Shown here one piece after another: positions 49,880 to 62,650 of a DNA stretch of 64,000 bases; the stretch's first letter is position 1; each line of letters opens with the position of its first letter. The translations under genes were made by a program, and so were the position numbers. The notes beneath the pieces are model-generated. The model made no database searches and had not been told where the DNA came from. It saw only the letters and a program-made list of their open reading frames with translations. The stretch lies in assembly GCA_045047305.1 (NCBI GenBank), contig JASFYO010000003.1, forward strand, positions 64,001 through 128,000, written 5' to 3'. The stretch is from Planctomycetota bacterium. GTDB taxonomy: Bacteria > Planctomycetota > UBA1135.

Positions 49880-51304
49880 ATGGCTATCACCTACGACAAA
49901 ATTCCCAACAACATTGATCTCGCAAGTAACCGCAAGGTCAAGAAGGCACTCGAAGCTTGGCAGCCCGATTTCAAAGATTGGTGGATGGAGATGGGGCCGG
50001 AAGGTTTCCAGGACGATGACATCTATCTGCGTACTGCGATTAGCGTAGATTCCAGTGGCTGGGCGCATTTTGATTACGTCAAAATGCCTGACTACCGCTG
50101 GGGTATTTTTCTCGCACCGCCAGTCAAAGACCGCAAGATTGGCTTTGGCGATAACGCAGAAATGAATGTCTGGGATCAGGTTCCTGGCGAATACCGTAAA
50201 GAGTTACGTCGCATGATTGTGACTCAATGCGATACCGAGCCGGCATCGGTGGAGCAGCAGCGTTTGCTCGGAAAGTGTGCGCCAAGTCTTTATGACATGC
50301 GCAACTTGTTCCAGGTCAATGTTGAGGAAGGCCGCCACCTATGGGCCATGGTGCACTTGCTGCACGAGTACTTCGGTAAGGACGGGCGTGACGAGGCCGA
50401 CGAAATGCTGCAACGTCGTTCGGGTAATCCGGACACCCCACGGATCCTGGAAGCCTTTAATAAGCCAGTCGAAGATTGGCTGGCCTTCTTTTGCTTTGCC
50501 ATGTACATGGACCGCGACGGCAAGTTTCAGTTAGGTGCTTTGGCGGAAAGTGGTTTCGATCCACTCGCACGGGCAACCAAGTTTATGTTGACTGAGGAAG
50601 CGCATCACTTGTTTGTTGGAGAAACCGGCGTAGGGCGCGTGGTTGCCCGCACCGCCCAGGTGATGGCGGAGAACCCGGAGACCGACCCACATCAGCTGGG
50701 TGTGGTGCCTTTGGACATCATCCAAAAGTACATCAACGAGTGGTACACCGGCTCCCTCGACTTGTTCGGTGGAGAAGATAGTTCCAATGCAGCGAATTAC
50801 TTTGGTTCTGGACTGAAGGGGCGCTTTCAAGAAATGAATCCGAAGCGCTTTACTGAGCATCAAGCTATGGACGAGTGCTACAACTTGGATTGGATGGAAG
50901 ACGGCAAGATGGCCAGCCATGAGATCCCGATGCGCCGTGCCATGAACTTAGTCCTGCGGGATGCTTACAAAGAGGATTGTGTGCGCGCCATGGTGCGCTG
51001 GAATAAGAGCCTCGAGAAGGCTGGACTGGATGAGCGCCTTTACCTGCCATCGCAGCGCTTCAACCGCCGTATTGGTGTTTATGCGAATCAAAGTTTCGAC
51101 CCTCACGGGGAGATATTGAGTGAAAAGGCATTCACCGAGCAGTTTCCTCAGTGGATTCCGACCACTACCGATTTGGAATACGTGAAGTCTCTTATGGTGC
51201 AGGTCACCACCCCTGGTGAATATGCAGGCTGGATTAATCCACCTTCCAAAGGACTCAACGGCCAGCCGGTTGATTTCGAATACGTGAAGTTTGTAAACGC
51301 ATGA
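49880..51304 (+). CDS. boxB: Benzoyl-CoA 2,3-epoxidase diiron subunit
   Basis: KIPNNIDL, YLRTAISVD..GWAHFDYVKMPDYRWGIF, DTEPASVEQQ, NVEEGRHLW, DRDGKFQL, LTEEAHH. Confidence 0.96.
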   Translation: MAITYDKIPNNIDLASNRKVKKALEAWQPDFKDWWMEMGPEGFQDDDIYLRTAISVDSSGWAHFDYVKMPDYRWGIFLAPPVKDRKIGFGDNAEMNVWDQVPGEYRKELRRMIVTQCDTEPASVEQQRLLGKCAPSLYDMRNLFQVNVEEGRHLWAMVHLLHEYFGKDGRDEADEMLQRRSGNPDTPRILEAFNKPVEDWLAFFCFAMYMDRDGKFQLGALAESGFDPLARATKFMLTEEAHHLFVGETGVGRVVARTAQVMAENPETDPHQLGVVPLDIIQKYINEWYTGSLDLFGGEDSSNAANYFGSGLKGRFQEMNPKRFTEHQAMDECYNLDWMEDGKMASHEIPMRRAMNLVLRDAYKEDCVRAMVRWNKSLEKAGLDERLYLPSQRFNRRIGVYANQSFDPHGEILSEKAFTEQFPQWIPTTTDLEYVKSLMVQVTTPGEYAGWINPPSKGLNGQPVDFEYVKFVNA

Positions 51305-52881
51305 GCACCACAGCAACGCTTTTGAAAAGCCACCTTTGCGGTGGTTGGCATCAGGGTGATGGCGAGACCGTCACCCTGTTCAATCCCACGACCGGGGAAG
51401 CCGTAGGGGAAGTATCCCGCGGTGGACATGACTTAAAGGCAGCATTGCAATATGCACGGGAAGTCGGTGGTCCAACTCTACGCGCGATGAGCTTTGCCGA
51501 GCGTGGCGCATTGCTTGCTGCTATGGCCAACGCCTGGCATGCCCATCGCGATGAGCTTTTGGATTTGAGCACTCTGTCGGGGGGGAACACCCGTGGCGAT
51601 GCCAAGTTTGACATCGATGGTGGCACTGGCACCTTGATGGCTTATGCAAAGATTGGCGAGAAGCTTGGAGAAGCCAAGTTCTTCATCGATGGAGAAAGCA
51701 TTCGCCTTTCGCGCAGTCCCCGTTTCGTCGGACGTCACGTGCAAACTCCGCGCGGTGGAGTTGCGGTGCATATTAATGCCTACAACTTCCCAGCCTGGGG
51801 CATGGCGGAAAAGGCTGCCTGCGCCATTCTTGCTGGAATGCCGGTTTTGACTAAACCTGCGACCAGCACCTCGCTATTAGCGGAACGCATGATGGAAATC
51901 TTGGTGGAAGACAAGGTGCTTCCCGAAGGTGTGCTACAGATGTTGGTCGGTTCCGCTAGCGATTTGCTCGACCATGTCAGCGGACAGGATGTCGTCGCAT
52001 TCACGGGGTCGGCATGGACTGGTCGCACGATTCGTTCCGGTAAAGCGGTCATTGCAAACTCGGTGCGGGTCAACGTCGAAGCCGATAGTTTGAATTCCGC
52101 AGTCCTCGGGCCTGATGTCAAGCCGCAGAAAGAAACCTGGGATTTGATGGTGCGCGAAGTTACCACCGACATGACCCAAAAGGCTGGTCAGAAATGCACT
52201 GCGATCCGGCGCATCTTTGTGCCGGTTGAGAAGGTTGAGGAATTTAAAGCAGACTTGAAGGAGTCCATCGCTAGCATTCGCGTCGGCAATCCTGCTACCC
52301 GTGGAGTTCGCATGGGGCCGGTTGCCAGTGCAGCGCAACTTAAGGATGTGCAAGAAGGCATTGCGGAACTTCTGCAAGAGTCCGACATCGTCCATGGCGA
52401 ACAAGGCCGCGGTACCTTGTTAGAGGTGGAGGAGGGCAAGGGTTATTTCCAAGCTCCTGTGCTGCTGCAAATTCGGGACAGCCAAACCGCCAAGCTAGTG
52501 CATGAGCGCGAAGTTTTTGGCCCAGTTGCAACACTCATCCCTTACGACGGCGATGCAGCCGCGCTTGGCGCTTTGCTGAATAAGGGCGAAGGTGGGCTTG
52601 TGGCTTCGATTTACTCCGATGACCGCAAATTCGCTGCAGACCTCATGACCGTGGTGGCTCCATTCAATGGGCGCCTCAACTTCGGCAGCAAGAAGGTTGC
52701 GGAGATGTCGATGGGACCTGGCGCAGTGCTTCCTATGTTGGTTCACGGCGGCCCCGGAAGGGCTGGTGCCGGTGAGGAACTAGGCGGTCTGCGTGGTATG
52801 TCGCTTTATATGCAACGCACTGCGTTGCAAGGCGACGAGCCGATGTTGGCCGAGATCATGGCCGACGGCATTGAAGTCTAA
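51301..52881 (+). CDS. 3,4-dehydroadipyl-CoA semialdehyde dehydrogenase (PaaZ-N-like ALDH)
   Basis: DIDGG.GTL, HINAYNFPAWG..EK, FTGSA, EADSLN, KAGQKCTAIRR, EVFGPV, HGGPGRAGAGEELGG; coupled to boxB. Confidence 0.88.
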   Translation: MSTTATLLKSHLCGGWHQGDGETVTLFNPTTGEAVGEVSRGGHDLKAALQYAREVGGPTLRAMSFAERGALLAAMANAWHAHRDELLDLSTLSGGNTRGDAKFDIDGGTGTLMAYAKIGEKLGEAKFFIDGESIRLSRSPRFVGRHVQTPRGGVAVHINAYNFPAWGMAEKAACAILAGMPVLTKPATSTSLLAERMMEILVEDKVLPEGVLQMLVGSASDLLDHVSGQDVVAFTGSAWTGRTIRSGKAVIANSVRVNVEADSLNSAVLGPDVKPQKETWDLMVREVTTDMTQKAGQKCTAIRRIFVPVEKVEEFKADLKESIASIRVGNPATRGVRMGPVASAAQLKDVQEGIAELLQESDIVHGEQGRGTLLEVEEGKGYFQAPVLLQIRDSQTAKLVHEREVFGPVATLIPYDGDAAALGALLNKGEGGLVASIYSDDRKFAADLMTVVAPFNGRLNFGSKKVAEMSMGPGAVLPMLVHGGPGRAGAGEELGGLRGMSLYMQRTALQGDEPMLAEIMADGIEV

Positions 52882-60396: not shown

Positions 60397-60506
60397 GCCC
60401 TAGATTACGCACAATCCAAGCTCATGGCAGGCTATCTTCGGCACTTCTAAGGGTTCTTTTCTGCTAGCATAGCCACGGAATCATCCAGCCTTTTTTGGAG
60501 TTCACA

Positions 60507-61556
60507 ATGAATGCAATTACACATCTTTTAGCTGGTGCCGCTTTAACGCTAGTCGTTTCTAGCCCGGCAACAGCGCAAGTCTCTGGTACCATGCCAAGCT
60601 TTGAAGGCGCTACCTGGTACAACACACCAGCACTCTCGATGGAGGATATGGAAGGCCGGGCCGTGATGGTCGAGGTTTTCCGTACTTGGTGAGGCCCTTG
60701 TAAGAGCCAGATCCCGCACCTGAACTCCGAATGGGAGAAAGGGAATGCAAAGGGACTGGTTGTCATCAGCGTGACTGATGAACCTGCCGAACTGGTGGAG
60801 CAATGGATTGCCGATCTTGGCGTGACCCACCCCGTAGTCATCTTGCCGGACAAAGCTCTGGAGAATGTCATCGGAGTCGATGGTTTTCCAACGTCTGCTG
60901 TTTTCTTGAATAAGGAAATGGTGTGGAAAGGGTATCCCGGTGCTGCCGGACCAGAACTGGAAGCCGCGCATAAGGAAGGGCGTCAAGATAGCGTCTACCC
61001 CAAGAAACTGAGCAAGGTAGTCAAGTTTTGGAATAAGGGCGACAAGGTGAAAGCTTTGCTGGACCTTTACAAAACGATGCCGAAATTGGAAGGCAACGAT
61101 TTAGCTTGGGCTGGTCGTATGGACACTTTTATGAAAAATGAAAGTGCCAAGGCCTTCGAAGCTTCTGCCAAGGCCTTCGAAGCAGGATTTTGGTTCCAGG
61201 GTGTACAACTCGCGCAGCCTTATCTGGGTAAAGGTTCGGAGTATCCTCGTGTCGCTGAAACCGTGAGCCACCTAGAAATGATGAAAGGGAGGCCAGGTTA
61301 CGCCAAGGAAATCAAAGGCGGGTATCTGTACCAGCAGGCTAAGGCTCTGTCGGCCGCGGGTGAATACCTCGATGCCTTCAAGACTTACAAGAAGGTCATG
61401 AAGAAGTCTTCCGATACTGCGATTGCCGGCCATGCTGAGACAGCTGCAAGGGAGCTCATGGATGGATATAAGCCTGGGTACAAGTCCACTTGTCCAAACT
61501 GTGATCATAAAACCGATGCTGCCTGTGCGAAGCATCGGGAGAAAGTGAAAATCTAG
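60507..61556 (+). CDS. Exported TlpA/thioredoxin-like protein with in-frame TGA (Sec) in a W-U-G-P-C motif, helical domain and C-terminal Cys/His cluster
   Basis: Track ORFs 60495-60692 and 60771-61556 are one frame: GRAVMVEVFRTW-TGA(60690)-GPCKSQIPHLN...GLVVISVTDE...GVDGFPT; signal ATA|Q; GGAG RBS. Confidence 0.88.
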
Positions 61557-61654
61557 ACCTTGCACTTTCACTTGTTGTCGGTCTGTTACTTCCTGGCATG
61601 CGCGAAAGTGGTGCTAGGGGGTAACGATGTCATGGCCACTGCTCCAAACTGAAA

Positions 61655-62650
61655 ATGAGTAGCCGCAGTCCCCTGGCTTTGGATGTGCGTAGCCTGGAGC
61701 AGCCTTTTTCTTCTTATGCGCGCGTGATTCGATTGATGCGGGCAGCTTTAGAAACGGTGGCGCTACCGCATGTGGAGTGGCACTCCGGTGCTTGCCATGC
61801 CGATGTCCTGTGGACCCCGGGTCCAACCATCCCCGAGGTCGCGGATGACCCACGCTTGCTCATTACCATCCAAGACATCAACCCGATGCTGCCCGATGGA
61901 CGGCCATGGTTCGCTCGTGCGCGTCGCACCCGTCGTTATCGTCGCTTAGTGCAGGGCATCGATCAGGTAGCTTGGCGTATCTCGGTTCCATCCGCTGCAA
62001 CCGAATCCAAACTGAGGGAGCACTTTCCCAAGCTCCAATCTCCACTCGTTTCTATTCCGTGGTTTGCGTCGTCAGAATTTGGTTTGCATGGGGAGCCTGG
62101 TAGCGACAATTTGCCCGAACCTGGCTACCTTCTCTATGTTGGTGCACTGCGCCCGCATAAAAACTGGCCGCTGGTATTGCGTGCCTATGCCGGCTTGTCG
62201 GAAGAGCTCCAAAAGCAACACCCATTGGTGATGGTCGGGCGTGGGCATCGTTCCGGACGCGAGGCCAAGGCACTTGCCGAACGCTTGGGCATCAGCGCAA
62301 GAGTGCGTTGGATGGAAGGTCTCGCCGATGAAGATTTACCGGCGCTTTATGGTGGCGCTGCACTCTTCCTCTTCCCATCCCTGCTGGAAGGATTTGGACT
62401 GCCGCCATTGGAAGCCCAAGCATGCGGAACTCCAGTGCTTGCCGCGGCAACATCCTCGCTCCCTGAGGTCCTTGGCACCTCCACGCGTCTGCTCGACCCA
62501 AACGCAGTGGATGCTTGGACTGCAGCAGCCACAGTACTGCTCCAAGATTCAAGCCTACGCGAGGCCGCGCGTAGCGCAGGCATCGCCAATGTCCAACGGT
62601 TCTCAGCGCAAGTCACTGGCGAGGCCTTAATCGCAGCGCTCGAGTCCTAA
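61655..62650 (+). CDS. Glycosyltransferase family 4
   Basis: YLLYVGALRPHKN, FPSLLEGFGLPPLEAQACGTPV, SLPEV. Confidence 0.9.
   Translation: MSSRSPLALDVRSLEQPFSSYARVIRLMRAALETVALPHVEWHSGACHADVLWTPGPTIPEVADDPRLLITIQDINPMLPDGRPWFARARRTRRYRRLVQGIDQVAWRISVPSAATESKLREHFPKLQSPLVSIPWFASSEFGLHGEPGSDNLPEPGYLLYVGALRPHKNWPLVLRAYAGLSEELQKQHPLVMVGRGHRSGREAKALAERLGISARVRWMEGLADEDLPALYGGAALFLFPSLLEGFGLPPLEAQACGTPVLAAATSSLPEVLGTSTRLLDPNAVDAWTAAATVLLQDSSLREAARSAGIANVQRFSAQVTGEALIAALES

Follow-up and report, generated by a model that had tools for sequence, protein, structure and literature searches.

A TlpA-like selenoprotein gene of Planctomycetota with a SECIS hairpin probably displaced to 77 nt from the UGA and brought within reach by a conserved stem in between

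The gene at positions 60507 to 61556 (+ strand) of the window, a stretch of 64,000 nt from contig JASFYO010000003.1 of a Planctomycetota bacterium (assembly GCA_045047305.1), is predicted to encode a selenoprotein of 349 amino acids, read with TGA as selenocysteine (Sec, U) and ending at a TAG stop. It probably represents a new variant of bacterial Sec decoding, in which a SECIS hairpin of normal type lies 77 nt 3' of the UGA and is looped in by the RNA in between. From the sequence comparisons described below, the SECIS of this gene would most likely be neither absent nor relaxed, but displaced.

The only in-frame TGA of the gene is codon 62 (60690-60692, +), in the context FRTW-U-GPC, and translation with TGA as Sec bore out the single frame with W-TGA-GPC put forward in the original prediction; with table 11 the same stretch gives two ORFs of 65 and 261 aa. 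A Shine-Dalgarno-like GGAG, presumably functional, can be read 6 nt 5' of the ATG (60497-60500, +). Among 61 genomes, one TGA was found at the same position in all 19 near-full-length matches (the gene itself included), and after the addition of further loci all 34 unique genes with the tail (34/34) had it, with protein identity down to around 32%. Position 62 is Cys in the distant full-length homologues P0100, P0142, P0188, P0121 and P0227, all of them single proteins, which disposes of the possibility that homologues are always encoded as two. P0142 is colinear with the product over 332 aa (27% identical, E 1e-27), and the UGA aligns with Cys with homology on both sides. A sequencing error at 60690-60692 is contradicted by the 19 matches and by a contig from another run (X5), which agrees there and whose sole difference over 60674-60876 is at 60809. 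In the contig of run X1 (60450-61578), none of the 27 listed substitutions falls in 60603-60808 and 19 fall in the next 143 nt; this gap is in line with constraint on the segment between UGA and SECIS, but recombination could also cause it. The 37 closest database proteins are, without exception, fragments of 244-284 aa starting 3' of the UGA, so that a Planctomycetota protein family stored in databases as fragments is now restored to full length. As far as sequence can tell, the product of our gene almost certainly contains Sec.

The host genome has the complete Sec machinery, the absence of which would have spoken against the gene: in profile searches selA scored 464 bits (cut-off 267.9), selB 280.5 bits (303.3 with its neighbour; cut-off 242.25), tRNA-Sec (selC) 75.6 bits (cut-off 47) and selD, which itself carries a TGA, 299.5 bits (cut-off 125). 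The collection of in-frame TGA genes that had been proposed as a check gave about 23 plausible Sec codons in the 2.83-Mb genome. Apart from SelD, labelled by its profile match, and a VPGUxxT gene, we take these genes by their motifs to be a DUF3179-like protein, AhpC, Bcp, MsrA, two AhpD-like and two MGMT-like proteins, FdhA and several thioredoxin-like proteins. A hairpin at 14-42 nt follows 18 of the 23 codons (18 of 27 examined, if four doubtful ones are included), and seven of these 18 near loops, msrA's among them, contain CGUG, while four contain GGUC(A). A tail-less paralogue with the motif WATW-U-GPC, outside the window (contig C3, 51825, +), has an ordinary hairpin at 30 nt.

The original prediction had seen no canonical SECIS after the UGA of our gene and no resemblance to the msrA hairpin downstream, and had proposed a lineage-specific or relaxed element. 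A scan of 14-42 nt agrees with the first statement as far as that interval goes. At 77 nt from the UGA, however, there is a hairpin with a 7-bp Watson-Crick stem (60763-60781, +) and the loop CGUGA (60770-60774), which is msrA-like and of a type that also follows other Sec codons in the host; with it, and with the ordinary near hairpins of 18 of the 23 host codons, the idea of a lineage-specific or relaxed element finds no support. The proposed co-folding of 60 nt after each UGA could not have reached it, and the first 48-60 nt gave no convincing SECIS. The hairpin has a pairing probability of 0.99, a local fold of -10.5 kcal/mol and an RNAalifold consensus of -9.87. It agrees with the bSECIS model in loop (3-9 nt), stem (4-16 bp), a G among the first two nucleotides of the loop and MFE (at most -7.5 kcal/mol), and departs from it in spacing, 77 nt being twice the distance usually accepted for bacteria, since the accessible text of the published model places the apical loop 16-37 nt from the UGA (PMC13188914, PMC10778597), and the conserved G is described about 20 nt after it in the part of PMC4605307 available. 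Within the family the loop, CGUGA or GGUCA, is at 77 nt, or at 71 nt in three genes. Rfam searches over 60400-61700 returned only a sub-threshold snoRNA match, and promoter and terminator scans stayed at chance level.

Several comparisons speak for this hairpin. Synonymous conservation among the 19 orthologues peaks over codons 86-95 (0.75, with a mean of 0.45, sd 0.09, and 0.64 after the UGA). In the long frames of the host genome, one Cys codon among 5076 is followed by a perfect hairpin of this type within +43 to +95; genome-wide such hairpins number 17 in total, and three of these lie behind Sec codons. We scored hairpins of at least 6 bp with a loop [ACG]GU[GC] in 85 unique loci (103 loci, L020-L122, before exact duplicates were dropped), with expectations calculated from each gene's own codon usage. 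Where the protein motif x[IV][GS]V[TS][DN]E is present, 59 of 61 TGA genes had the hairpin (6.1 expected), compared with two of the 13 genes with Cys (0.9 expected). Irrespective of the motif the counts were 59/70 and 2/15, and the Fisher p of 1.4e-9 for Sec versus Cys overstates the difference because only two to three Sec/Cys pairs are independent. The Asp codon was GAT in 56 of 58 TGA genes (28.8 expected) versus 6 of 13 Cys genes (5.5 expected). An alignment (A3) of 46 of the 59 hairpin-bearing genes was chosen for the hairpin, so its 100% stem pairing is due to selection of the sequences and only changes on both sides of a pair count; these occur in three of the seven pairs (18 cells versus 4.1 in shuffles). 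Sampling of the distal element was within Planctomycetota, where a degenerate pattern scan of 401 genomes yielded 33 matches in 32 genomes from 11 families, and the reversed pattern none. The pattern allowed mismatches; even so, in 28 of 30 fetched matches all seven pairs are Watson-Crick, and five distinct stems are represented among them. Another 49 TGA paralogues, not chosen by motif, include six with a +77 hairpin, the stems of which are different again. A scan with TGY in place of TGA (2 versus 33 matches) was not counted as support: its pattern also accepts broken stems, and so it mainly reports that Cys genes with the motif are rare in the phylum. Taken as sequence evidence, these data make it very likely that SelB binds the distal hairpin.

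The RNA between the UGA and this element also appears to be structured. In the MFE fold the spacer of our gene is one hairpin of 57 nt (60705-60761, +), which starts 12 nt after the UGA, extends from +13 to +69 and ends 1 nt before the SECIS stem, with a dG of -25.9 and a z score of -4.45 against 150 synonymous resamplings. A single spacer hairpin of at least 45 nt was predicted in 59 of 59 distal genes, the conserved hairpin measuring 51-59 nt, and spacers were more stable than synonymous resamplings (p<=0.05) in 54 of these 59 genes (mean z -2.84), in none of 11 other Sec genes and in two of 15 Cys genes. The effective distance between UGA and SECIS stem has a median of 15 nt-equivalents in the 59 genes (about 15 in ours); with the 7-bp stem added, the loop comes to about 22 and falls within canonical limits. 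Shuffled spacers had a median effective distance of 19, and the difference was seldom significant for single genes. Pairing of the closing helix amounts to 82% across 46 Sec genes and to 49% across 11 Cys genes (four of the 15 Cys genes, with 74-nt spacing, were left out), and in the Sec genes four of its ten pairs have changes on both sides. The RNAalifold consensus recovered the SECIS hairpin and not the spacer helix, which indicates that the spacer register varies. On balance, we think that the looped-out spacer probably acts as a positioning device.

The mechanism as a whole, to which we give about the same good probability from the sequence data, would be the ordinary SelB/tRNA-Sec route with a displaced SECIS looped into range by the conserved spacer stem. 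With the ribosome at the UGA, some 12 nt downstream would remain single-stranded, the stretch from +13 to +69 would form a single long hairpin, and the CGUGA hairpin with its 7-bp stem, 1 nt further, would come to stand next to the mRNA entry site, much like a canonical SECIS located near +20. SelB would then bind the CGUGA loop and deliver Sec-tRNA at the UGA. The product would act in the periplasm as a reductase of the TlpA/ResA type, in which U62 is the nucleophile and C65 the resolving residue, and would probably be recycled by a DsbD-type protein of the host, in whose genome a DsbD_TM domain was detected (91.2 bits); its helical region would serve for partner binding and be closed by a structural Cys3-His metal site.

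Other explanations were considered. The distal hairpin might work as a SECIS through local concentration, the spacer pausing the ribosome or shielding the mRNA without serving as a ruler. The variable register of the spacer, its absence from the consensus fold and the short effective distance of shuffled spacers (19 vs 15) speak for this, but spacer stability accompanies the distal hairpin only (54/59 vs 0/11) and the closing helix, with both-side changes in 4/10 pairs, abuts the SECIS stem, so that we regard it as unlikely. Somewhat less probable still is that the apex loop of the spacer, GAAUG at 36 nt, is an ordinary edge-of-range SECIS and that the 77-nt hairpin does something else. GAAUG is the only in-range candidate in our gene and falls within the loosest published limits; it fits the model as given in the accessible text of PMC13188914 in the size of its loop, the G at the first loop position, the distance from the UGA and the length of the stem, and loops at 34-37 nt within the same limits occur in 18 of the 59 distal genes, ours included. 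It is not conserved, however, and a G[G/U] loop within the published range is found in only 5/59 distal genes, whereas the distal loop is nearly invariant.

The hairpin could also be a by-product of I/V-G/S-V-T-D-E codons inherited in one clade, Sec being inserted through a weak near signal or none. What makes us give this very little weight is that the non-preferred GAT is kept where GAT accounts for 5-6% of Asp codons (L062, L067, L069), that amino acid changes are accompanied by compensating partners, and that the distal hairpin decays where a near hairpin appears; yet the motif codons are partly self-complementary, with stems of at least 4 bp in 6 of 15 Cys genes and 81.8% pairing in 11 Cys genes, both Cys matches of the phylum scan (L213, L214) have perfect stems, and independent contrasts are few. 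One of these Cys matches, L061 (genome G137, which has selB), is nested in the Sec clade and lacks the tail, but keeps the distal hairpin with a stable spacer; this gene may have reverted recently, or may point to a different function. We find it hard to believe that the GTG of the loop is the internal start of a separate 261-aa protein, with the UGA as a real stop and the hairpin regulating re-initiation. V89 is indeed GTG in 19/19 orthologues and gene callers begin at GTG 89, but 21 of the 59 distal genes have GTC, which is not a start codon (loop GGUCA), and this makes an internal start unlikely as the cause; besides, a start at codon 89 would, going by the structural model, split the thioredoxin fold, and full-length Cys homologues are single proteins. 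A pseudogene, or a general code change with UGA read as Trp or Cys, has next to no probability: TGA ends 261 of the 946 frames of at least 1200 nt in the host genome and is therefore an ordinary stop without code reassignment, tRNA-Sec is the only UCA tRNA listed there, and TGA is fixed at the catalytic position in 34/34 genes.

A displaced SECIS that takes the place of a near one is also in agreement with the distribution of both elements in related genes. In one scan of 157 genes, which left out L159, where residue 62 was not covered by the alignment, and L188, which was mislocated (both are absent from the paralogue and tree counts as well), a near hairpin was found in 51 of 55 Sec genes without a distal one, in 8 of 77 with a distal one and in 1 of 25 Cys genes, with a background of 9.2%; the 77 distal genes give no estimate of frequency because the pattern search contributed 12 of them and a search by protein motif many others. 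In a FastTree tree, near-type genes are nested within distal clades (L035 with L038, L046 with L131, and L139), and these have broken distal stems and unremarkable spacers. Well-supported independent distal/near pairs number three, never in the opposite direction (p>=0.25). Near loops cluster at 17, 29-30 and 38-40 nt after the UGA. Among the 17 genes whose loop lies at 34-40 nt, nine show a short hairpin upstream of it (p<=0.05), a possible small loop-out, and the 38-40 nt loops, just beyond the published limit, often lie behind a 6-bp hairpin. Loops at 38-40 nt were seen in the TlpA-like Sec genes L156, L163, L166, L168, L173, L176-L179, L181 and others. We suggest tentatively, at somewhat less than even chances, that the position of bacterial SECIS elements is set by folded rather than sequence distance, and that nature makes use of this with hops among +17, +30, +39 and +77 inside a single protein superfamily. 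With the same reservation, a hopping SECIS would settle wherever the protein sequence tolerates it, at +39 often behind a 6-bp hairpin and at +77 behind a long one.

The protein begins with a probable cleavable signal peptide (residues 1-23; 60507-60575, +), a hydrophobic stretch ending in A-T-A|Q with cleavage after A23 judged by eye, of low pLDDT and similar in orthologues; it supports the export signal that had been predicted. Residues 24-159 (60576-60983, +) form a TlpA/ResA-type thioredoxin-fold domain, as had also been claimed: Pfam AhpC-TSA (PF00578, 43.3 bits, cut-off 26) and Redoxin (PF08534, 36.6 bits, cut-off 26.6) are both above cut-off, and the AlphaFold model of the domain matches ResA/DsbE-like chains in Foldseek (E 7e-8) and VIA (Z 16-18; for 3gl3 Z 16.4, rmsd 2.3, 131 residues aligned). 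The cis-Pro motif GFPT is at 126-129, with P128 invariant in 73/73 aligned tail-bearing rows, and alignment and predicted structure agree on a thioredoxin fold with [CU]xxC and the cis-Pro motif. By established thioredoxin-family chemistry, the product is likely an exported reductase with a redox role, U62 attacking and C65 resolving.

Structure prediction for the 349-aa product, suggested earlier as a check, gave a model with a mean pLDDT of 93.6, in which residues 166-319 (61002-61463, +) are an all-helical region of eight helices following the thioredoxin-like domain. The expectation of a helical region was thus confirmed, and the resemblance of its hairpins to TPR is loose: a TPR_6 profile hit 1 of 73 rows (E 0.002). 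Residues 160-349 modelled alone were confident (pLDDT 97.6), Foldseek found no match to the C-terminal region at E<=0.001, and none of 48,161 chains reached Z >=8 (best Z 7.8, with assorted helical hairpins of about 55-70 residues), a lack of matches by which the fold can be neither called new nor assigned to one already known. Next comes the anticipated Cys3-His cluster, CPNC-x7-C-x2-H at residues 329-343 (61491-61535, +; pLDDT 98), a putative metal site in which C329, C332 and C340 are invariant and H343 is kept in at least 90% of 73 rows, which were chosen as tail-bearing; in these the middle spacing is 6-8 residues. No Pfam or NCBIfam model matched the helical region with its CxxC-x6-8-CxxH tail, and a tail profile run against six-frame translations of the host genome found our gene only. 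Five full-length homologues with neither Cys nor Sec at the active site (P0097, P0098, P0109, P0111 and P0125) keep both the helical region and the tail, which suggests a non-redox role for these parts; since the tail survives without the active site, it would most simply be a structural Cys3-His metal site. Zinc is the metal we somewhat favour, and a disulfide relay or redox switch may be alternatives. No conserved operon surrounds the gene in 29 loci, an ABC-F gene lying downstream in eight and MoxR/DUF58-type genes upstream in four.

As in the canonical bSECIS of the E. coli fdhF type, the proposed element is inside the coding region 3' of the UGA, with a 7-bp stem and a 5-nt loop with G then U in its first positions, and the selA, selB, selC and selD genes are standard; it differs in having the loop at 77 nt (71 in three genes) with a conserved spacer hairpin of 51-59 nt in between. 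The closest precedent is engineered: Su, Li and Gladyshev (2005, NAR 33:2486) reportedly found in E. coli that a distant SECIS worked when base-pairing brought it close, in what is said to have been an artificial 3'-UTR construct of low efficiency. The arrangement described here differs in being natural, within the ORF and present in at least 11 Planctomycetota families. According to the accessible portions of PMC10945757, engineered SECIS-rRNA fusions indicate that SelB needs nearness rather than a fixed mRNA position, and the family loops CGUGA and GGUCA resemble the E. coli minimal SECIS loop given there. In the available text of two reviews the bacterial SECIS sits immediately 3' of the UGA (PMC13188914, PMC10778597). 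We found no natural displaced bacterial SECIS in the literature searched, which covered neither supplements nor most subscription papers, and the accessible parts of PMC7026636, PMC2792357, PMC8318568, PMC4807772 and bioRxiv 2022.07.06.499078 describe no such element.

Taken by itself, the protein would count as a new subfamily within a class already known, since UxxC redoxins are already predicted selenoproteins: Table 1 of PMC13188914, in the text available, names a 'Redoxin family protein (PF08534, UxxC)', a 'Thiol-disulfide isomerase-like (cd02966, UxxC)' and a 'Prx-like thiol:disulfide oxidoreductase (PF00578)'. Our protein shares their Pfam domains above cut-off and the UxxC motif; unlike these classes, as they are described in that table, it has about 190 extra residues with the helical region and the CxxC-x6-8-CxxH tail, a C-terminal architecture that is undescribed. 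With ResA, TlpA and DsbE it has in common the fold, the W-x-x-P-C site, the cis-Pro and the export signal, but it has Sec for the first Cys, an N-terminus that by eye is cleavable rather than anchoring, no conserved cytochrome-c or other operon context, and scores far under the NCBIfam cut-offs (ResA NF002854, 55.4/170; TlpA NF047696, 27.8/230; DsbE TIGR00385, 22.3/123.15), no NCBIfam model being above cut-off. NF041054, 'ResA-like WAxxUGC motif-containing protein' (354 positions), is a ResA-like selenoprotein of similar length, but our protein has UGPC instead of UGC, scores 32.5 bits against a cut-off of 300 and matches over residues 26-170 only.

BSepDB, in its accessible description, finds a canonical SECIS in 87.4% of entries and takes the remainder to suggest uncharacterised features (PMC13326102), and the available part of the deep-Sep paper states that atypical SECIS elements get missed (PMC12013277). 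For one class of the unexplained SECIS-less entries of BSepDB the present family offers a concrete answer, and its natural switches between SECIS positions are built-in controls. If looping-out works as proposed, bSECIS searches need a term for it; looped-out elements could then explain some of the bacterial selenoprotein genes, 12.6% of those in the catalogue, that lack a canonical SECIS, and could conceal further selenoprotein families from SECIS-based searches. They could also provide a living model for how the SECIS left the side of the UGA in archaea and eukaryotes, and would give a natural design for making selenoproteins in which the residues just behind Sec need not be rewritten; the accessible text of PMC10778597 describes this need for rewriting as a limit.

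Other in-frame TGAs of the host genome deserve mention. Four with coding-like sequence on both sides (contigs C5 42559, C21 101800, C71 6045 and C49 19296, all on the - strand) have no SECIS-like hairpin within 95 nt, and could mark the borders of genes, belong to broken genes or add to the atypical cases. An AhpD-like CxxU gene (L215, contig C34 355, -) has no hairpin at 14-42 nt and one at 47 nt behind another, a possible second case of looping-out, with no TGA-bearing orthologue among 61 genomes. The same idea was rejected for a VPGUxxT gene, the orthologues of which mostly have a hairpin at 27 nt. Three large repeat proteins, presumably FG-GAP/ASPIC-UnbV-like to judge from their sequence, have the TGA within D[LV]-U-S[SF]FWR (contigs C63 569, -, C63 3738, -, and C17 343, +; L217, L218) and a hairpin at 17-21 nt after it; they matched nothing in NCBIfam, and no such family is listed in Table 1 of PMC13188914 as far as its accessible text goes. 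A gene with two Sec codons (L216, contig C56 16189-17061, -) matches NF041383 (338.9 bits, cut-off 275), with ordinary near hairpins at both sites in most relatives. Within the window itself, adjacent ORFs at 49880-52881 (+) resemble what we take to be benzoyl-CoA epoxidase subunit B and a PaaZ/BoxD-type aldehyde dehydrogenase.
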